NCBI GenBank assembly: GCA_963767925.1
Contig: CAVYGB010000008.1
Coordinates: 2,816,001 to 2,880,000 of the forward strand
Source: an uncultured delta proteobacterium
Lineage (GTDB): Bacteria > Myxococcota_A > Polyangia > Fen-1088
Length of the DNA: 64,000 nucleotides
Direction of reading: 5' to 3'
The position numbers and the translations under genes are program-made. Shown here piece after piece: positions 48,849 to 60,899 of the stretch. The notes below the pieces were generated by a model that was not told where the DNA came from, did not search any database, and was given only the letters and a program-made list of their open reading frames with translations. Within the stretch, counting starts at the first letter, position 1, and every line of letters begins with the position of its first letter.

Positions 48849-48933
48849 GCCGGGGTGGCGAAATGGTAAACGCGGCGGACTTAAAATCCGCTCTCGCGAA
48901 AGCGTGTTACGGGTTCGAGTCCCGTCCCCGGTA
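48849..48933 (+). tRNA. tRNA-Leu (anticodon TAA), CCA not encoded
   Basis: Acceptor GCCGGGG/CCCCGGT; D-loop aaatggtaaac; anticodon stem GCGGA-cttaaaa-TCCGC; long variable arm CGC-gaaa-GCG; T-loop GGTTCGAGTCC. Confidence 0.97.
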
Positions 48934-49071
48934 CTGCGAGATCCTTGCCGGATCCGGGGGCGCATCGGCGGCGGTGCGTGCTGCTGCCGCGCCACGTGGG
49001 CCTCAAGTGGGGCCTCTTGCGCGCTGCTCGCTCCGTCCCTGACGCGAGCTCCGGTCGGCGGCTGGGGAACG

Positions 49072-49131
49072 CTGTACCTCGAGAGCCCCATGGGCACGGC
49101 CATCAGCTACACGCTCAACGACTGGGAGGCG
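49072..49131 (+). mobile_element. IS66-family transposase fragment (relic)
   Basis: ESPMGTAISYTLNDWEA resembles the conserved IS66 TnpC segment P.S.LG.AI.Y.LNQW.AL. Confidence 0.55.
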
Positions 49132-49755
49132 ACTCCACACGCTTTCGGGACAACTCTCGCTTCCCGGACAGTTGCGTCCATCCGGAGAGGAGATCAGGGC
49201 CTCAGAACACCTCCGACGGCCGCGAACTACCGCCAGCCCCCGCCCGGCAAAGGTTGACCCGTTCCGCACGCCTCATTCCACTGCCGAGGTAGATGATGGA
49301 TGGCAGGAAATCCCATACCGCCGCTTTGCCGAACTCAGCTCCATGCCGAAACAGGCAAGTCGGTGAGAATCCCGCGAAGCTTCCGGCGTTGTTCTTGCGG
49401 CGGTGTCGGCGCCAGATGAATGAGCAACGACAGGAAAAATTCTGGCTTCTGTGCCCTTCTGCGATCGTCTTTGCGACGTCTATTCCCACAACCCGACGTC
49501 CTCGTCGAGGTTGCCCGCCCGTGCGACAGCCGCCCTCTCGAAGGACCGACACCCGCCTGGCGCTGAGGTACACGCCGGCATGATCAAGCGCGATCTTCCG
49601 AAGTTGCGCATCCCAGGCAAACCCGCCGGTCGCTACCAGCCTGCTGCGATGAGGAGTTCAGGAGACAAAAGGACAGCAAAGACGGCAACCTCCCTTTGTA
49701 ATATTACGAAATAGAGAACAGGGAAGAGCCGCGGGCCACCGAGATCGAGAAGCAA

Positions 49756-50166
49756 GTGCGAGCGAAACTGGCTCCTGACCACCTCAAAGCACTTGGCCTC
49801 GAAAGTGTTTCTCTGGACGAGATCGACTGCGAGCTAGCTCGTGCCGAGGCAATTGTATCTTGGTCCCAAGAAGACGCGGTTGCCGTCAGCATATCATTGA
49901 CCGCGAATGCGACAGATCCACTCTACTATCTCCAGGTGAAGGACGGCCGGCTTGCCCATGGGACGTGGCGTGTCCCTGCTAAACCTGGAGAGCTTCTCGA
50001 TCCGCACTCGAGAAGCCGTACAGTCCGAGTCAGACTTCGTGATGGTCGCTTCTTCGTAGAGCAGATTCTGCTTTTCAGTGAAGACGACATTCATCCCGAC
50101 GACTACAAGATCGCGAGGAACGCGGATCCGGCTGCGGCTCGCTCGGTGAGCTTGCCTTCGAATTAG
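49756..50166 (+). CDS. Hypothetical protein, atypical codon usage, possibly 5'-truncated
   Basis: Lower-GC ORF next to the tRNA. The reading frame continues upstream past an in-frame TAA near 49699. Confidence 0.45.
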   Translation: MRAKLAPDHLKALGLESVSLDEIDCELARAEAIVSWSQEDAVAVSISLTANATDPLYYLQVKDGRLAHGTWRVPAKPGELLDPHSRSRTVRVRLRDGRFFVEQILLFSEDDIHPDDYKIARNADPAAARSVSLPSN

Positions 50167-50297
50167 CGGCGCTGGCATCGTCCCTTCTCGTCGCCGTCGC
50201 GCAGGAGGAGGCACATCGGCGGTGTGCGCGCCGATTTCTGGCGCCGAGCGAGAAGCCCGGGGACGTTCGCCACGACGGGCGCGGGCCGGGCTGAGGA

Positions 50298-50621
50298 TCA
50301 GTTCAGTTCTTCGTCGCGGGGGGTGCGCTCGGGGGCGGCTGCGGGATCGGGGGCGGTGGTCTCGGAGCTGGGCGCGGCGGCGGTGGCGGCGCCGTCGGGG
50401 CGGGCGCGGCTCAACGACTGGGCGCCGAGGGTGGCGATGGCCTGCGAGACGGTGGCGCTGAGGTCGGCCAGCGCTTCGGGATGGAGGGCCATCGTGATCG
50501 GGCCCACCGTGAGGTAGAGGTCGCCGCAGCCGCAGCGGTCGAGGCGGGTGACAGTTCCGGAGGCGATCACCTCTCGCACGAGGGTCACCTGGTCGCTGTC
50601 CCGGTTCGTGTTGCGCTTCAT
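50298..50621 (-). CDS. Small hypothetical protein with a CxC motif (RCGCGDLYLTVGPIT)
   Basis: RBS GGGAGG before ATG, GC3-rich codons, downstream of a Fur-boxed promoter. Confidence 0.7.
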   Translation of the reverse strand: MKRNTNRDSDQVTLVREVIASGTVTRLDRCGCGDLYLTVGPITMALHPEALADLSATVSQAIATLGAQSLSRARPDGAATAAAPSSETTAPDPAAAPERTPRDEELN

Positions 50622-50805
50622 GGAGCCTCCCTGGAGATCGGGGCGCGGCCGGGGCTGTGCTTCGGTCGCCGCGCTACGTGGCCATACACCCCAGGGCGGC
50701 GGCTCGAGGATCCAGGATGGTTCGGAGGACTGGAATCCCCGGGCCGCCGCCTTTCCCTACACCCGGGCGGCATCCCCTGACCGCCGCCCGCCACAGGAGA
50801 AAGAT

Positions 50806-50833
50806 GATTATGATTTCCACTATCATCTGTCAA
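50806..50833 (-). promoter_or_regulatory. Fur box plus -35 (site 1)
   Basis: Minus strand TTGACA-N3-GATAGTGGAAATCATAATC, 15/19 match to GATAATGATAATCATTATC. Confidence 0.8.
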
Positions 50834-50900
50834 CGAAGAAGAGCGGGGCCCGGGCCTTCAGGCCCCTAAAACGCCGCGGCGGCGGCGGATTTGCCTCAGC

Positions 50901-51395
50901 TCACTTGCGGCGGCGGCAGGGGCCACACAGCCCGAACAGCTCGTGGCGGTGGCGGCGGAGCACGAAGCCGTGTTCGGTGGCGATCTTGTCCTGGAGCTTC
51001 TCGATGGGCTCGCTGAAGAACTCGACGATGGCGCCACAGCGCTCACACACGAGGTGGTCGTGGTGATCGCGCCCGAGGGCCACTTCGTACACGGTCGAGC
51101 CGGAGCCGAAGTTGCGGGCGTCGGCCAGGCCGGCCTGCTCGAGCAGCTTCATCGTCCGGTACACGGTCGCCATGCCCACGGCGGGGTTCTTGGTCCGCAC
51201 CTTCTGCAAGAGGTTCTCGAGCCCGGTGTGCTCGCGGGTGGTCAGGAAGGTGTCGACCACCAGATCCCGGATCTTCGAGGAGTGCAGGCCGTTCTCCTTC
51301 TCGAAGGCGCGCAGCGAATCTTTCCAGCCCTCGACGGTGGTGCCGCGCTCGCGTTCGCTGGCGGCGCCCTTGGACCTGACCGAAGCCCTTGCCAT
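50901..51395 (-). CDS. fur: Fur-family transcriptional regulator
   Basis: VGMATVYRTMKLL, HHDHLVCERCG and HELFGLCGPC. Confidence 0.92.
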   Translation of the reverse strand: MARASVRSKGAASERERGTTVEGWKDSLRAFEKENGLHSSKIRDLVVDTFLTTREHTGLENLLQKVRTKNPAVGMATVYRTMKLLEQAGLADARNFGSGSTVYEVALGRDHHDHLVCERCGAIVEFFSEPIEKLQDKIATEHGFVLRRHRHELFGLCGPCRRRK

Positions 51396-51643
51396 GGCGG
51401 GTGTTTTAGCAGGAATCACCCGACCGCGACACTTCGCTTCCGTGCCGTCACGGGCGCGTCGCTGATCAGGGCCCCTCCCGCGGGCGCCGACCGCCGCCGG
51501 CGGCACCTCCGCAGGCCGGGGTGTGCGGTGAGCCTGGTATTCGCCGCGGGCGCGTGTCGCCGGAGCGCGCTCGCTCCCCTGGGTGGCACGGGCCTGCACG
51601 CGCCAGCGGGGACCGGGGCGGGACCGGGGAGCGCGCTTTTCAG

Positions 51644-51671
51644 TTGACTAGTGATTGTGAAACTCATATTC
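51644..51671 (+). promoter_or_regulatory. Fur box plus -35 (site 2)
   Basis: TTGACT-N3-GATTGTGAAACTCATATTC, 13/19 match. Confidence 0.72.
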
Positions 51672-51679
51672 ATATTTGT

Positions 51680-51955
51680 ACTTGTCTTCGATGAAACCCA
51701 GAACCGGCTCGCCGGGGGTGTGGGGGTTGGACGTTCTCCGCTCGTCCGACTCCGCTCCTTCGGCGCTTCTCCGGAACATCGGCCAGGCGCCCGCGGTCAT
51801 GCGCGGGCTGCAGGCTGGTGAGGCCGGGGCGGACACCGGGTCGAGGGATCCCGGAAGGATGGGCGGGAGAGTGGGCGTGGCGGGGGACGCGAGGGGAAGC
51901 CGCAAGGTGAGCGCGTTCTCCGCCACAGCCCCGGTAGGGGCGAAAGGCAACCACG
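51680..51955 (+). ncRNA. Candidate structured leader RNA or sRNA
   Basis: About 275 nt of non-coding sequence with long hairpins containing plus-strand G-U pairs (51877-51891 with 51912-51926), an internal GCC-GCAA-GGT tetraloop, and a hairpin at 51714-51760. Confidence 0.5.
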
Positions 51956-52219
51956 ATGCCCCACGATGAAGCCGTCAAGGAAGCGAGCAAGGCGCCTGGC
52001 AAGGGCGTCGGGCCGGGCGATGCCCCGCGCAGCGACGCCGTGACGACCGGCGAGGTCCGCTGCGGATGTGGCTCGCTGCTGGCGCGGGTGTCCGCGGCCG
52101 GGGTGGAGCTGAAGTGCCGGCGCTGCCGCCGCTTCATGCTCGTGAGCCTGGGTGCCGACGGCCGCTATGTGGCGCGGGGCAATCTGCTCCAGACCATCAC
52201 CGGCCCCACCGACGACTGA
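51956..52219 (+). CDS. Small Com-like zinc-ribbon protein
   Basis: EVRCGCGSLLARV...VELKCRRCRR follows the Mu Com pattern RC..C.KLL...IEIKC.RC; purine-rich RBS gaaagg. Confidence 0.7.
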   Translation: MPHDEAVKEASKAPGKGVGPGDAPRSDAVTTGEVRCGCGSLLARVSAAGVELKCRRCRRFMLVSLGADGRYVARGNLLQTITGPTDD

Positions 52220-52367
52220 GCCGCGCCGGGGCGACGCCTCGGCCGGAGCATCGCTCACCGACCACAGCAACGGCGTCCGGCGCGAGGTCATGTGTCGCCG
52301 TACGCTCCCTGTCCCATCCCCTGACCGTACCCCCCCGTACAGGGAAACGCCTCCGAAGGGTCAGAGC

Positions 52368-52859
52368 TCAGTTGGCGAAGTCCGCCGGATCGCCGGGGCG
52401 GGGGCTGCTGTTGCGGGCGCGGCAGGCGGAGCAGATGCCGTAGAGCTCGTGGCGGTGGGTGCGCAGCTCGAAGCCGAGCTCCTCGGCGATCTGCTGCTGC
52501 ATCTGCTCGATGGCTTCGCTCTGCCACTCCTCGATGGAGCCGCAGACGGTGCAGATGAGGTGGTCGTGGTGGGCGCGCTCCCGTACGGCTTCGAAGCGGG
52601 TGGGCGCGCCGTCGAAGGCGTGGCGCTCGACGAGCCCCGCTTCTTCCAGGAGCTTGAGGGTGCGGTGGACGGTGGCGAGGCCGATGCGGGGGGCCCGCTT
52701 GCGGGCCAGGGCCACGATCTCCTCGAGGGTGAGGTGGGTCTCGGTGCCGAGGAAGACCTCTGCCACCGCCCGCCGGGAGGTGGTCTCCTTGAGCTGGTTG
52801 CGGTAGCAGAAGCGCTCCCACTCCTCGAGGCGTTGTCGCAGGGCCGCTGGACGTTTCAT
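52368..52859 (-). CDS. fur: Fur-family transcriptional regulator (second paralog in the island)
   Basis: IGLATVHRTLKLL, HHDHLICTVCG and HELYGICSAC. Confidence 0.92.
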   Translation of the reverse strand: MKRPAALRQRLEEWERFCYRNQLKETTSRRAVAEVFLGTETHLTLEEIVALARKRAPRIGLATVHRTLKLLEEAGLVERHAFDGAPTRFEAVRERAHHDHLICTVCGSIEEWQSEAIEQMQQQIAEELGFELRTHRHELYGICSACRARNSSPRPGDPADFAN

Positions 52860-52887
52860 CGCTTGTGGAGGCGGGCGCGCCTCAATT

Positions 52888-52906
52888 GAAAAACAATGTC
52901 ACTTTC
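52888..52906 (-). promoter_or_regulatory. Fur-box-like site upstream of fur (site 3, possibly autoregulatory)
   Basis: Minus strand GAAAGTGACATTGTTTTTC, 12/19 match, in an AT-rich patch. Confidence 0.55.
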
Positions 52907-53001
52907 ATCATCAGATCTGCACCGGGCCGAGGAGAGATGTCAAGGCCTGCGACGGGCTGGGGTTGCGCGCGATCGCGGGATTCGCCTGCTGACCGGCGGG
53001 G

Positions 53002-53031
53002 ACGGGGACGGGGACGCGGACGGGGACGCGT
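53002..53031. repeat. Intergenic hexamer repeat (ACGGGG-like) x5
   Basis: ACG at 53002, 53008, 53014, 53020 and 53026. Confidence 0.65.
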
Positions 53032-53050
53032 CGGACGAGGGGGGAGATGG

Positions 53051-54439
53051 TCAGGGGGTGGGGTCGTTGTGGAAGGGGAGGATCCAGGCGGGGGGGAGCT
53101 GGTCGGCGGCCAGGTCGATCTCGGGATCGACGAGGGGGCGGAGGGGGCGGCCGTTGAGGCTGACCAGGACTTCGGCGTGGACGGCCACGCCGGGGCCTTC
53201 CTTCCGGGCCAGGGCGCGGGCGAAGTCCCGGATCAGGTCGGGCTGGGTGGACATCATCTTGATCTGCAGGGGGGTCAGGTGGTCGCGCAGGCGCACCGGG
53301 CGGCGCTTGCCCGTGCGCCGATCCCGCAGGGTGAAGTCGGCTACCCCCGTCTTCTCCATCAACATGACGTGCCAGGAGAAGCGGTAACCCTGCTCGCTCC
53401 ACAACACGTGGCCGGGGTACAGGTGCTGGCGCAGCGGGAAGAGGGTCTGGAACAGGACGTAAACCAGCAGGGCCGCCGTCGCGAGCCGGCCGAGCGGCGG
53501 CGCCTGTGAGGCCGGGCGGGGCGATGGGGGCACGCGCGGCAGACGAAGCAGGCGAAGCAGGCGGCGGGGCCAGTCGGGCGAGAGGAACAGCAGCGAGCAG
53601 CCGATCATGAAGAAGGGGAACATGCCCAGGCGGAACAGGCGGACGGTCAGCAGGTGGAAGGCCACCGCGGCGATGAGGGCGAAGGGGCGCGAGCGGCGCC
53701 AGAGCAGCAGGAACGGCACGAAGGTGTCGAAGGCGGCGCCGGCCCAGCTCGCGAGGTGCGCGGTCTCGGGGCGCATGAGCAGGGGGCCGAGCAGGGGAAA
53801 GTCGCCGTTGGTGGGCAGCCAGATCCGCAGGGGCAAGGCCTGCAGCAGCCAGTCGCTGCGCCACTTCGCCACGCCGGCGAAGAAGTAGACGCACCCGACC
53901 TGGAAGCGGAGCAGCCCCAGGGTCCAGGCCGGGACGGTGGGCTCGACGCCTCCGCGGCGGAGGGCGTCGAGCGACCAGATGCGCGCGCTCGGCACCACCG
54001 CCAGCAGGGCGGTGAGCAGGGTGACGAGGTAATAGTGGTTGAGGTAGTGGGTCAGGTCGGAGAAGTGTGCGTAGCTGAACAGCAGGCAGAACAGGCCCGC
54101 CGCCGGTCGGGCAAACAGGCCAACCATGAGGCAGGTGGCCAGCAGGCTCAGCAGGCCGAACAGCAGGTACATCGCCGGGGGTGACAAGGGCGCCAGCCCG
54201 GACCACAAGGGGAAGAAGAAGGTCGGATCGACGAAGGCCTCGCGGATCATCCCCTTGGCGGCGTAGCGAATCACCGCCACCAGCAGCAGCGCCCCGAACA
54301 CGACGCGGAAGGCGGCCAGCCCGGCCGCGTCCACCGGCGCGGCCAGACGCCGCCGGAGGCGCAGGAGTCGGCCCGCTCCGGCTCGCGGAGGGTCAGTCCC
54401 CGTCGTTGTCGGAGAAGCCGATGCTGACGCCAAGGGCAT
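53051..54439 (-). CDS. HTTM-domain protein (vitamin K-dependent gamma-carboxylase homolog)
   Basis: LAAFRVVFG, YLNHYYL, VYFFAGVAKW, YRFSWHVML, MSTQPDLI and VSLNGR; multiple TM helices. Confidence 0.9.
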   Translation of the reverse strand: MPLASASASPTTTGTDPPRAGAGRLLRLRRRLAAPVDAAGLAAFRVVFGALLLVAVIRYAAKGMIREAFVDPTFFFPLWSGLAPLSPPAMYLLFGLLSLLATCLMVGLFARPAAGLFCLLFSYAHFSDLTHYLNHYYLVTLLTALLAVVPSARIWSLDALRRGGVEPTVPAWTLGLLRFQVGCVYFFAGVAKWRSDWLLQALPLRIWLPTNGDFPLLGPLLMRPETAHLASWAGAAFDTFVPFLLLWRRSRPFALIAAVAFHLLTVRLFRLGMFPFFMIGCSLLFLSPDWPRRLLRLLRLPRVPPSPRPASQAPPLGRLATAALLVYVLFQTLFPLRQHLYPGHVLWSEQGYRFSWHVMLMEKTGVADFTLRDRRTGKRRPVRLRDHLTPLQIKMMSTQPDLIRDFARALARKEGPGVAVHAEVLVSLNGRPLRPLVDPEIDLAADQLPPAWILPFHNDPTP

Positions 54440-55562
54440 TGAACACCCCGGTGGCCAGCGCGGCCTTCACCAGGCGGAGGGCAGCGATGGCCCGCACCAC
54501 CGGCTCCGACTCGGCGCCGGCGGTCCGCACCGGCCGGGGCACGGCCCCGACCAGCTCCCGCGCCGTGGCCAGCGTCCGGAGCATCTGGGTGTCGGCGTTG
54601 GCGTTCATGTCGCGCACGGCGTCCGCCACCGAGACCACCGCCACGACATCGGGCCGGGCCCGGGGCCGCCCGGTGTAGAGCGCCTCCAGGCCGGCGAGGT
54701 CCTCGAGAATGTCGGGCACCACCTGGTCGCTGCGCGTGGCGACGGGCAGGCCGACCTTGGTGGTCATCCCGCCGGTGGCCAGCCGGAGCACGTCGATGGT
54801 GCGGTCGGCGATGGCCAGCGATTTGTTGAGGAGGGCGTTGAGGGCGTCGCGCTCGAGCGCGAACTGGGTGCTGCCCCGCCCCGCCCGGGCCAGCTCCTGC
54901 CCGAACTGCGCCCGCCAGCCCTCGACCACCGCGCCGAGCTTGGCGTCGAGATCGCCGCCGAGGAGCCCGAGGTAGAGCGCCCGCCGCGGTCCCTGTGGCC
55001 CGGCGAAGGTCTGGGCGGTGGCCTCGGGGGTGGCGTCGGCCGGCTCGAACAGGAGGTATTCGATGGCCAGGAAGCCCCGCTGGTTGGCCCCCAGGCTGCG
55101 CACCGCCGTGGCGTCTAGCGGGGTGGCGGCGGCCAGCAGGCGCTCCAGCCGGGCGGCGTCGGTCGGCTCGTCGATGATCCCGCTGGTCACGCCGAGGTCG
55201 TCGGCGGGGCCGATGCCGTAGGCGTTGGTGCGGCGCCAGAGCGCGCGGGTGGCCCGCCAGGTTTCCCGGGCGGCGGCGATGTTCTCCGCGGTCGGCGCCC
55301 CCGCCGCGCTGGTCAGGGCGGCGGCCAGCTCGGCCGAGCCGGTCTTCAACGCCTCGTAGTCGGGCAGCGCCACCACCCGCACCAGCTCGGCCAGCACGAC
55401 CTGGCGATCGGGGCGGGCCGCGGGCGGCCCCTCGACGGCGGCGGCGTCCGGCGTCTGCGCGGGTGCGCCGTCCACCTCGGCCGGCGCGGGCGCCGGCTTG
55501 CGCTCGCAGGTGGCGAGCACCGGGAGCAACAGGAGCAGCAGACCGGTCCGCGTCGTCGACAT
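54393..55562 (-). CDS. Imelysin-family lipoprotein lacking the GxHxxE histidine
   Basis: Lipobox LATC, ARETWRATR and QRGFLAIEYLLF; C-terminal IGFSDNDGD. Confidence 0.85.
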   Translation of the reverse strand: MSTTRTGLLLLLLPVLATCERKPAPAPAEVDGAPAQTPDAAAVEGPPAARPDRQVVLAELVRVVALPDYEALKTGSAELAAALTSAAGAPTAENIAAARETWRATRALWRRTNAYGIGPADDLGVTSGIIDEPTDAARLERLLAAATPLDATAVRSLGANQRGFLAIEYLLFEPADATPEATAQTFAGPQGPRRALYLGLLGGDLDAKLGAVVEGWRAQFGQELARAGRGSTQFALERDALNALLNKSLAIADRTIDVLRLATGGMTTKVGLPVATRSDQVVPDILEDLAGLEALYTGRPRARPDVVAVVSVADAVRDMNANADTQMLRTLATARELVGAVPRPVRTAGAESEPVVRAIAALRLVKAALATGVFNALGVSIGFSDNDGD

Positions 55563-57059
55563 CACAGGGAATCCAGGAACATGATGAGCGCCTCCCGATC
55601 GGGCTTGGGCAACTGCTTGTAGGCCTCGCGGCTGCGTTCGGCCTCGCCGCCGTGCCACAAGATAGCCTCGGAGAAGCCCCGCGCGCGACCATCGTGCAGC
55701 AGATAGCGGTGGCGGTTGACCGCCTGCACGAGGCCGAGCCCCCACAGGGGTGGGGTCCGCCACTCGCTGCCCGAGGCCTGGAAGTCGGGTCGCCCGTCGG
55801 CGAGGTCGGGGCCCAGGTCGTGCAGGAGAAGATCGCTGAACGGCCGGATGGTCTGGCCAGACAGCTCGGGCAGCTCGGGGTGGGTCCCGGTCTTCAGCAC
55901 CGGCGTGTGGCAACCCGTGCATCCCAGCTCGGCGAAGACGACCTTGCCCCGCCGGACCTCGGGCACCATGGTGCGGCGACGGCCCGGGACGGCCAGCGTC
56001 GACACGTACGACACGACCGACTTCAGGAAGGACTCGCTGAGCTGCGGCGCCTCGTTGCCCGGCTCCGCGGTGGGGGCGGCCTGGCAGGCCTCCTGGGTGG
56101 AGGTGCAGCTCTCGGCCGGGAACATCGCGGAGGTGATGCCGATGTCGCCGTTGAATGCCCCCGCGGTCTGCTGGCGCAGGTTGGGCTGGTTGGCCTTCCA
56201 GCCGAAACGGCCGAGGGCCGGGCGCTGGTTCTCCTGGTCCCACACCAGGTTGGGGCGCCCCGAGATGCCGTCGCCGTCGAGGTCGTCGGGATCGGCGCGG
56301 GCGAGCAGGGTCTCCTCGGGCACCGCCTCGAGCAAGCCCAGCCCGACCAGGTGCGCGCCCACCCGCGGAGAGATCATCACGTCGGGGGCCAGCGGGCCGT
56401 AGCCCAGGCTCTCCACGGTGTAGCTCGGTTTGCGCAGCGAATACGGCTCGCCGTCGGCGAAGCTGCCCGGCACCTCCTGGTAGGCCACCCGGCCCCGGCC
56501 TTCGCCCGGAACGCCGGGGATCGAGGCCCCCTGGAGCTGCCCGCCATAGCTCGGCTCGGGCAGCGGGGCCGCCGTGCGAGTCGGCGCCAGGCACCGACAG
56601 GCGGAGCAACATCGAGCTGAAGTTCTCGTCCGGCCGATCGGGGGGCCGGCCCCGGCCGTCCCGGATGTGACAGGCCGAGCAGTTCGTCGCGTTGAAGACC
56701 GGCCCCAGCCCGTCCATGCCGGTCACCGAGGCAGGGGCGATGATCCAGCCCCGGTTGAAGATGGCGTTGCCCACGAAGAACTCGTCTTCGTGCTCGGGCG
56801 TGAGGGTCGGGACGGCCTGGGAGAAGGCCTTGCTGCCCGTGTCGAACACGGTCGCCGCACCGCCAGAGAAGGCCTCGCCGGGATCCTCCAGCCAGGAGTC
56901 CGAGCCGGTGTCGGCCGGCTGGGCGTCCGCCTCCAGCGCGTCGGGCGGGTCGGACACTGCGGCATCGAGGAGCGGCGGGTCGCCCGGGGGCGACCCGCCT
57001 TCTCCACACGCCGACGCCGTGAGGACCAGACCTGCGACGAGCGTGGCGGCGATGCGCAT
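55562..57059 (-). pseudogene. Di-heme oxidoreductase (DHOR) lipoprotein with a +1 frameshift at 56565-56568
   Basis: GLGPVFNATNCSACH in one frame; GLGLLEAVP, GRFGWKA, CTGCH, WRTPPLWG and YLLHDGRA in another. Removing one G restores HGGPLPEPSYGGQLQ; may be a sequencing error. Confidence 0.85.
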
Positions 57060-57081
57060 CAGGATGGGCGTCGAGCGCCGC

Positions 57082-58470
<1,389 letters not shown>

Positions 58471-58572
58471 TGGCAAGAACCTCATCTGGATATTGGTGGC
58501 ACGGGGCGCTGGGGCCTCTGACCTCCGACCTGTGTTGATGTACGTGGATCTACGTAGAGCCACGCCCGGATC

Positions 58573-58600
58573 GAATATGACGTTCATTTTCAGTTGTCAA
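58573..58600 (-). promoter_or_regulatory. Fur box plus -35 (site 4), imelysin operon promoter
   Basis: Minus strand TTGACA-N3-GAAAATGAACGTCATATTC, 13/19 match. Confidence 0.78.
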
Positions 58601-58703: not shown

Positions 58704-58928
58704 ATGATCGTCTGTGTCTGTCGCGCGGTCGGCGAGCGGCAGCTCCGCGCCGTGGTGGAGCGCGGCGCCTGCACGCTCGAGGCGGTGGAGCGGGCCTGCG
58801 GAGCCGGCGGCGACTGTGGCACCTGCCAGCCCGAGATCGTGGCCCTCATCGTGCGGCACGGGCAGCCGGCGGCCGCCCGCTTCTCGGTAGTGGCGCCGCC
58901 CGCGGAGGGTCCGCGGGCCAGCGAGTGA
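58704..58928 (+). CDS. bfd: Bacterioferritin-associated ferredoxin (2Fe-2S)
   Basis: MIVCVCRAV...GAGGDCGTC. Confidence 0.9.
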   Translation: MIVCVCRAVGERQLRAVVERGACTLEAVERACGAGGDCGTCQPEIVALIVRHGQPAAARFSVVAPPAEGPRASE

Positions 58929-60880: not shown

Positions 60881-60899
60881 GATTATGATAGTCAGTTTC
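60881..60899. promoter_or_regulatory. Fur box (site 6)
   Basis: GATTATGATAGTCAGTTTC, 15/19 match, 15 bp upstream of the DUF6607 start. Confidence 0.78.

Follow-up and report, generated by a model that had tools for sequence, protein, structure and literature searches.

A predicted Fur-regulon cassette that interleaves a chromosomal Com homologue and a CxCG protein with two fur paralogues

When two genes for small cysteine-containing proteins alternate with two fur genes, and each of the small genes follows a Fur-box promoter and a long untranslated leader, does the locus encode a module of regulatory RNAs or one of regulatory proteins? The question is raised by a window of 64,000 nucleotides (the whole stretch of DNA analysed here; GC content 71%) from contig CAVYGB010000008.1 of an uncultured delta proteobacterium, the host assembly being 9.3 Mb in 13 contigs and 84% complete. 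GC content at third codon positions (GC3) cleanly delimits four genes in its interval 50,298-52,859, namely a 107-aa open reading frame (ORF), fur1, an 87-aa ORF and fur2. A first-pass annotation saw here a set of Fur-repressed structured RNAs paired with Cys-motif mini-proteins. We find that the locus is a real small-protein cassette of the Fur regulon, of a kind undescribed, and that the part of the claim which concerns "structured RNA" lacks support; the comparative evidence, as drawn from sequences, moves the emphasis from the RNAs to the proteins. The reading that we prefer, to which we give a probability of roughly 60%, is that of a cassette of the iron-starvation (Fur) regulon lying within an island of iron-uptake genes.

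The promoters of the two small genes are of the same build, as had been noted at first sight, each consisting of a TTGACA or TTGACT hexamer, three further nucleotides and a 19-bp Fur box (TTGACA-GAT-box in promoter 1, ahead of the gene for the 107-aa protein, hereafter p107; TTGACT-AGT-box in promoter 2, ahead of the 87-aa gene), and between the boxes 15 of the 19 positions agree. The 19-bp Fur consensus, an AT-rich inverted repeat, is GATAATGATAATCATTATC; the two boxes differ from it by 5 and 6 mismatches, and a genome scan with this consensus returned only 18 sites with at most 5 mismatches. A position weight matrix (PWM) built from the consensus-like sites of the host genome, and used with a threshold of 24 bits, gives the boxes of promoters 1 and 2 scores of 28.3 and 23.9 bits, and finds 25 strand-wise matches at or above the threshold in the genome against about 3 expected from first-order Markov sequence, an enrichment somewhat inflated by the self-training of the matrix. 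Nine of the 14 distinct Fur sites are concentrated in a single stretch of 105 kb around and including the window, and a promoter scan for promoter 1 found 1 site with 0.1 expected. The TTGAC(A/G/T)-N3-box layout occurs at five promoters genome-wide and is the organism's ordinary Fur-promoter layout, no mark of the two units. Fur binding at the boxes and the transcription starts are predicted; the proposed Fur control of both small genes gains from the fact that homologues of both families elsewhere carry boxes at the same place, as the following counts show.

In the protein collection the 87-aa protein finds 177 homologues, several of which JGI labels "phage FluMu protein Com", and the Com-like core RCxCGSLLARV...ELKCRRC is invariant, with C36, C38, C54 and C57, four cysteines in two knuckles, unchanged in 23 sequences. 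The first knuckle of the family is CxC, one residue shorter than in phage gpCom. The suspected likeness of the protein to Com is borne out by alignment of the family profile with gpCom of Escherichia phage Chuche (hhalign probability 94.4%, E 9.1e-8, 33 columns). By tblastn alone the best value against phage Com is E 0.7, and the Pfam family PF10122 (Zn_ribbon_Com), which has no match to the window protein at E up to 1, is weakly matched by 6 of the 23 family members (best E 0.004). An AlphaFold2 (AF2) model has a confident ribbon core, with a predicted local distance difference test score (pLDDT) of about 95 in the core, and a fold search with this model gave no match at E up to 0.001. By these alignments the protein is a chromosomal, domesticated homologue of phage Mu Com, and RNA binding is predicted for it from this homology and from an element that lies downstream of the gene in relatives.

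Relatives of the Com-like gene were found at 262 loci in species-representative genomes, and the context counts that follow use the best 80 of the 262. In 40 of the 80, a Fur box of at least 24 bits is found no more than 600 nt upstream of the Cys core, against a background in the same loci of 15 boxes per 381 kb, and 36 of these 40 boxes lie 51-124 nt from the core, so that only a few to about 30 nt separate the end of the box from the ATG. A fur gene is found upstream on the same strand in 21 of the 80. The next gene encodes a TonB-dependent receptor in four loci (L058, L059, L082 and L096, from Corallococcus, Pyxidicoccus, another member of the Myxococcaceae and a metagenome-assembled genome (MAG) of the Bdellovibrionota); an imelysin gene lies 3' of the Com-like gene in locus L109, and in a Nannocystaceae MAG the Com-like gene is followed by a p107-like gene and an imelysin gene.

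The 107-aa protein belongs to a second family, for which neither Pfam nor NCBIfam gives a match in any of 55 members. Its 15 close homologues share the MKR start and the near-invariant core VTLVREVIA.G.VTRLDRC.CGDLYLTVGP.T.ALHPEALADLSAT, and C30 and C32 are invariant in this subfamily. A profile search of 1.84 billion representatives recovered 1007 clusters at E <=0.001 (235 at E <=1e-10), mostly of 70-100 aa, with the wider consensus C.R.RLAE ... VD.C.CG..HLH.GA.TLRL.P.A..EL..TLG.A, often with an RGEA end. The AF2 model (pLDDT 81.7) consists of four strands and a long helix; its structural neighbours, PURA repeat III (Z 5.0, 56 residues, root-mean-square deviation 4.4) and a PC4 homologue (Z 4.6), are within background, the best Foldseek match has E 0.56, and a PDB sequence search with the p107 profile gave no match. 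Among 401 genomes of the phylum, 27 genomes with a match, the window's own included, yielded 28 loci, of which 15 carry a Fur box no more than 500 nt upstream, in most cases at a distance of 8-75 nt from the match (background in these loci: 4 boxes per 68.8 kb); both mini-protein families are in this way linked to Fur boxes. The genes downstream of p107-family genes encode a TonB_C/Plug receptor, imelysin (twice), a Plug-domain receptor and ferritin.

An RCGCG motif is present in each of the two proteins, as originally observed, and as a family trait it does not hold, being local only. A common origin of the mini-proteins by way of this motif was considered and rejected, as hhalign of the two family profiles gives a probability of 20% over 12 columns. 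Of the 80 Com-like loci, 4 contain a gene of the p107 family, and of the 28 p107 loci, 2 contain a Com-like gene. The clearest case of both families in one unit is locus L118 (G227:C40:1-2606), where a Fur box is followed by a Com-like gene, the downstream element (784-831), a p107-like gene (876-1148) and the gene of a TonB_C/Plug receptor (1141-2604).

This element is a strand-specific conserved sequence directly 3' of Com-like genes, composed of a GGCC-N-G-N-GG hairpin and then a CCCAG-N-GCCC core, the 3' part of which opens another hairpin that is terminator-like or contains the ribosome-binding site of the next gene. A covariance model, R1, built from 30 instances, matches 57 of 83 Com-like loci in several phyla (about two dozen of the 57 being outside the training set), always on the strand of the gene, and it matches 1 of 30 control loci of the p107 family, one that also carries a Com-like gene. 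No corresponding Rfam family was found. In the spacer between com and receptor genes of the Myxococcaceae, 2 of 31 predicted pairs are changed on both sides, the sequences there being too similar to one another. The element has the look of an RNA partner to the Com homologues on chromosomes. At the window's own unit R1 has no match in 50,600-52,400 at E up to 10, neither leader included; its best match in the window (15.1 bits) lies outside that interval and its best in the genome (23 bits) within a long ORF, and searches by regular expression and covariance model agree that the element is absent from the host assembly at its 84% completeness.

From this material we propose the following account. 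As iron-loaded Fur leaves the 19-bp boxes, which overlap the spacer and -10 region of two sigma-70-type promoters, the two small proteins would be made. Both families are most likely accessory regulators of iron uptake that act after the start of transcription, in analogy to HemP/HmuP/ChuP and, as to mechanism, to Com and mom, because both are elsewhere the small first genes of Fur-box operons for TonB receptors or imelysin; in other bacteria the Com-like gene may alternatively be placed behind fur itself. At the present locus the two genes stand alone on either side of fur1, with unusually long GC-rich 5' leaders that are most likely lineage-specific untranslated regions, outside any conserved RNA family, and that perhaps serve for local translational masking.

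It may be asked whether the small proteins act on nucleic acids at all. They could instead have proteins or metals as targets, the Com-like protein being for example an anti- or co-repressor of Fur and the CxCG protein a sensor or chaperone of iron or Fe-S with an intersubunit Cys site. An effect of the Com-like protein on Fur would explain the frequent fur-com operons, with fur genes directly upstream of Com-like genes, and the reading would suit both the conserved Cys (and His) residues of the two families and the position of the Com-like gene here between two fur genes. The core of the Com-like protein, however, aligns with an RNA-binding phage protein, the same-strand element beside its relatives points to a nucleic-acid target, and the best folds found for p107, weak as they are (Z <=5.0), are single-stranded nucleic-acid binders (PUR repeat, PC4), so that we hold a protein or metal target to be decidedly unlikely.

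A related doubt concerns the regulator itself. That two fur paralogues are interleaved with the mini-protein units was correctly recognized from the beginning, since both intervening genes match PF01475 (fur1, E 2.6e-31, 108.7 bits; fur2, E 1.2e-34, 119.5 bits; cut-off 23.1). The top NCBIfam models of both paralogues are those of iron Fur (E 2.6e-27 and 2e-30), which outrank the models of PerR and Zur but score below the equivalog cut-offs. A third fur-like stretch with 76% DNA identity to fur1 is found about 4 kb before the start of the window (G000:C8:2812013-2812419), and there are therefore at least three Fur-family genes within 57 kb of the genome. One of the two "fur" genes of the cassette might encode another member of the family (Zur, Mur or a PerR-like protein) that the boxes serve in a response to zinc, manganese or peroxide; operators of the Fur family are alike, the number of paralogues would allow it, and both small proteins are Cys-rich, which makes zinc binding possible. 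Against this stand the lead of the Fur models over those of PerR and Zur, which is wide, and the identity of the genes behind such boxes, here and in relatives: imelysin, Bfd, TonB-dependent receptors and ferritin. A regulator other than iron Fur thus seems very improbable.

The RNAs were the other half of the initial proposal, and its statement that the leaders are long and non-coding stands: the N-termini of homologues support both start codons, so that the 184 and 284 nt between box and ATG are genuine, while the starts of the leaders are predicted. At the other Fur promoters of the window the plausible starts lie 11-112 nt from the box, and the long leaders are peculiar to this locus, because nearly all relatives place the box a few to tens of bases before the ATG. 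The hairpins with UCCUCC and UUCUCC in their loops are present in the minimum-energy folds, but the stability of leader 1 is like that of its shuffles (z -0.03 and 0.19 in two runs). Leader 2 gives z -3.25 and -3.22 in two runs; 39 control gaps (gene-free, 200-420 nt, same contig) have a mean z of -0.96 with a standard deviation of 2.1, and 4 of the 39 are at or below -3.25, so that the stability of leader 2 is in the upper tenth of intergenic gaps and unexceptional.

Searches for relatives of the leaders gave little. Rfam returned 5 matches in 49,000-54,000 at E up to 10, none near the gathering score and none in the sense strand of the leaders; a weak, sub-threshold match to BjrC68 overlaps the hairpin 50845-50866. 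For a homologous leader in 89 genomes of the order, the matches listed comprise just fur, a few pieces of the Com core and low-complexity GC sequence, and scans for orthologous leaders found one distant locus in metagenomes and zero in genome contigs. The notion that the leaders are structured RNAs of a conserved module is not sustained, there being no Rfam match, no homologous leader among those listed and ordinary folding. Two other identities were considered for the leaders and set aside. As a coding region leader 2 could be represented by the ORF 51691-51966, with GC3 of 0.80-0.87, yet it has no homologue and is itself not in the protein collection; as repeats or mobile elements they fail in that each is unique in the genome and the two are mutually unlike except for one 11-mer.

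This 11-mer, CACAGCCCCGG, brings us to the observations that weigh against our reading, several of which favour the idea that the leaders are Fur-repressed riboregulators, either cis switches or trans-acting molecules like small RNAs (sRNAs) with loops directed against the Shine-Dalgarno (SD) sequence, that form a module with the mini-proteins. It lies 22-38 nt before the ATGs of both genes and has 11 copies in the genome on both strands; TTCTCC occurs three times in leader 2, where the genome rate is 0.31 per kb per strand, and together the shared 11-mer and the TTCTCC copies hint at a cis element. The stability of leader 2 exceeds that of 199 of 200 shuffles. For both proteins the close relatives (about 70-75% identity) come from metagenomes, as protein sequences only, and the leader may be conserved within this closest subfamily. 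The window's Com-like gene has no downstream element of the kind that most relatives have, and the other half of the Com-like loci are without a box at the 24-bit threshold of a matrix trained on the host genome only and applied to other genomes.

The great length of the leaders beside the short ones of relatives and of neighbouring Fur promoters, the anti-SD sequences in hairpin loops and the coupling of Com-like genes elsewhere to a conserved RNA element would all fit riboregulation, and so would a further resemblance, that of GAAACCCAGAACCGG, at the 5' end of leader 2, to the core of the Com-linked element. A regular expression written post hoc finds this site alone in the genome, but with an unbiased PWM of the core it scores 8.5 bits, less than any of the 30 training sites (13-22 bits), and 1322 genome positions score at least as high, which corresponds to P ~0.02 for a leader of 284 nt; the likeness is, at the level of sequence, a lead only. 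Homologues do not conserve the 11-mer in their leaders, a terminator scan found no terminator inside either leader that could release an sRNA, and the lack of R1 and Rfam matches, the ordinary stability of leader 1 and the four control gaps that equal leader 2 count likewise against riboregulation, which we consider unlikely. A composite scheme, in which the Com homologues and CxCG proteins form a post-transcriptional arm of the Fur regulon that has been rewired here, with the Com-like protein acting on both leaders (through CACAGCCCCGG and the anti-SD hairpins) and the two Fur paralogues closing a feedback circuit, appears quite improbable. As an observation apart, a second genomic pair of the 11-mer (C2:1,550,409 / 1,550,571; G000:C2:1550409-1550640, L153:2010-2240) has the form CCACAGCCCCGG-N-T-Y-GTCGGCC, in two inverted copies 160 nt apart; this pair was set aside as a gene-free, non-coding inverted repeat without an iron link.

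The preferred reading, that of a Fur-regulon cassette in which the small proteins are the conserved part, can now be set in its surroundings. The features of the locus are collected in Table 1.

Table 1. Features of the cassette (positions in the window) and instances of the Com-linked element (positions in the respective loci of relatives).
Feature	Position	Strand	Remarks
107-aa CxCG protein gene (p107)	50298-50621	minus	GC3 ~0.9; homologues
Leader 1, non-coding	50622-50797	minus	~177 nt from inferred start to ATG; long hairpin, UCCUCC in loop; SD GGGAGG; flat GC3
Promoter 1	50804-50833	minus	TTGACA 50833-50828, N3, Fur box 50824-50806 overlapping -10
Terminator-like hairpin 3' of fur1	50845-50866	minus	separates fur1 from promoter 1
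fur1, Fur-family regulator, 164 aa	50901-51395	minus	PF01475; HHDH motif and two CxxC
Spacer between fur1 and promoter 2	51396-51643	unstranded	GC ~80%; fold z 0.44 on fur1 strand
Promoter 2	51644-51671	plus	TTGACT 51644-51649, N3, Fur box 51653-51671
Leader 2, non-coding	51672-51955	plus	~276 nt from inferred start; several hairpins
87-aa Com-like zinc-ribbon gene	51956-52219	plus	CxC ... CxxC core, residues 36-57
fur2, Fur-family regulator, 163 aa	52368-52859	minus	PF01475; convergent with Com-like gene
fur2 upstream region	52888-52943	minus	TTGACA 52943-52938; weaker AT-rich Fur-like box 52906-52888 downstream, PWM 18.4 bits
Com-linked element, instances	L059:3218-3307, L096:3198-3287, L082:3195-3284
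Com-linked element, further instances	L058:3233-3321, L061:3189-3277, L088:3162-3250		plus others

No promoter of fur1 was recognised by the promoter scan in the spacer 51396-51643. The iron-related neighbours in the window are genes for HTTM, a DHOR-imelysin fusion, imelysin and a Bfd-like ferredoxin, and DUF4198, DUF6607 and YceI genes are also present. HTTM, DHOR/imelysin and imelysin form a row on the minus strand (53051-58587) behind a promoter of the TTGACA-N3-Fur-box type (58573-58591), from which the gene of the Bfd-like ferredoxin (58704-58928) is divergent, and more boxes are found at 60881, 62690 and 62911, ahead of the genes for DUF6607, a response regulator and YceI. On the other side, just before the cassette, a tRNA-Leu(TAA) gene (48849-48934) is followed by about 1.1 kb of low GC (0.45-0.58; 49000-50150) that holds one 136-aa ORF without a family; this stretch may be what is left of an integrated element.

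Fur regulons are textbook material, and what the locus adds to them is a pair of widespread small-protein families, directly behind Fur boxes and without a family model, that occur at 262 loci or more for the Com-like proteins and in about 1000 representative clusters for the CxCG proteins. Full-text literature searches turned up no account of Com homologues linked to Fur, nor of the CxCG proteins as a family. Should it be true that these proteins tune the translation or read-through of iron-uptake genes, they would form an overlooked layer of iron control in Myxococcota, Binatia, Nitrospirota and others, and the present window contributes a case in which both families are paired with two fur paralogues. 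The long leaders seen here are not to be mistaken for the Com-linked RNA element.

Among known systems, that of phage Mu offers itself first. Mu Com, a zinc ribbon, binds the leader of an mRNA and activates the translation of mom, the gene that follows. The window's protein resembles it as a small basic four-Cys zinc ribbon whose core aligns with gpCom of a Mu-like phage, and in most relatives the gene is followed, on the same strand, by a conserved element that lies in the next gene's leader, much as com precedes mom. The differences are that the window's family is chromosomal, predicted to be Fur-controlled and linked to iron uptake, whereas the partner in the phage is a DNA-modification gene; that the first knuckle is CxC here and CxxC in Mu Com, the window protein falling under the Pfam threshold; and that the gene in the window stands alone, without a downstream element.

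The first-pass annotation had drawn its analogy with another group of systems, the sRNA FsrA of Bacillus subtilis with FbpA, FbpB and FbpC, and the sRNAs of the RyhB and PrrF type, all of which exert Fur-repressed post-transcriptional control. The likeness is that of a Fur-repressed layer in which RNA is paired with small basic proteins. In contrast to these systems, the RNAs of the window are the 5' leaders of protein-coding genes, which contain no terminator and have no Rfam match, and the proteins belong to no named family, unlike the Fbp proteins.

The HemP/HmuP/ChuP proteins provide a third comparison. Neither window protein matches their Pfam family at E up to 1, both window proteins differ from them in containing Cys, and no receptor gene follows at the locus. 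ChuP is proposed as a post-transcriptional activator of receptor genes (PMC9131926). The HemP/HmuP/ChuP proteins are encoded by the small first gene of a Fur-repressed haem-uptake operon with a TonB-dependent receptor; relatives of both window proteins have the same position, and by position and by this proposed role HemP/HmuP/ChuP are the closest described analogue of the two small proteins.

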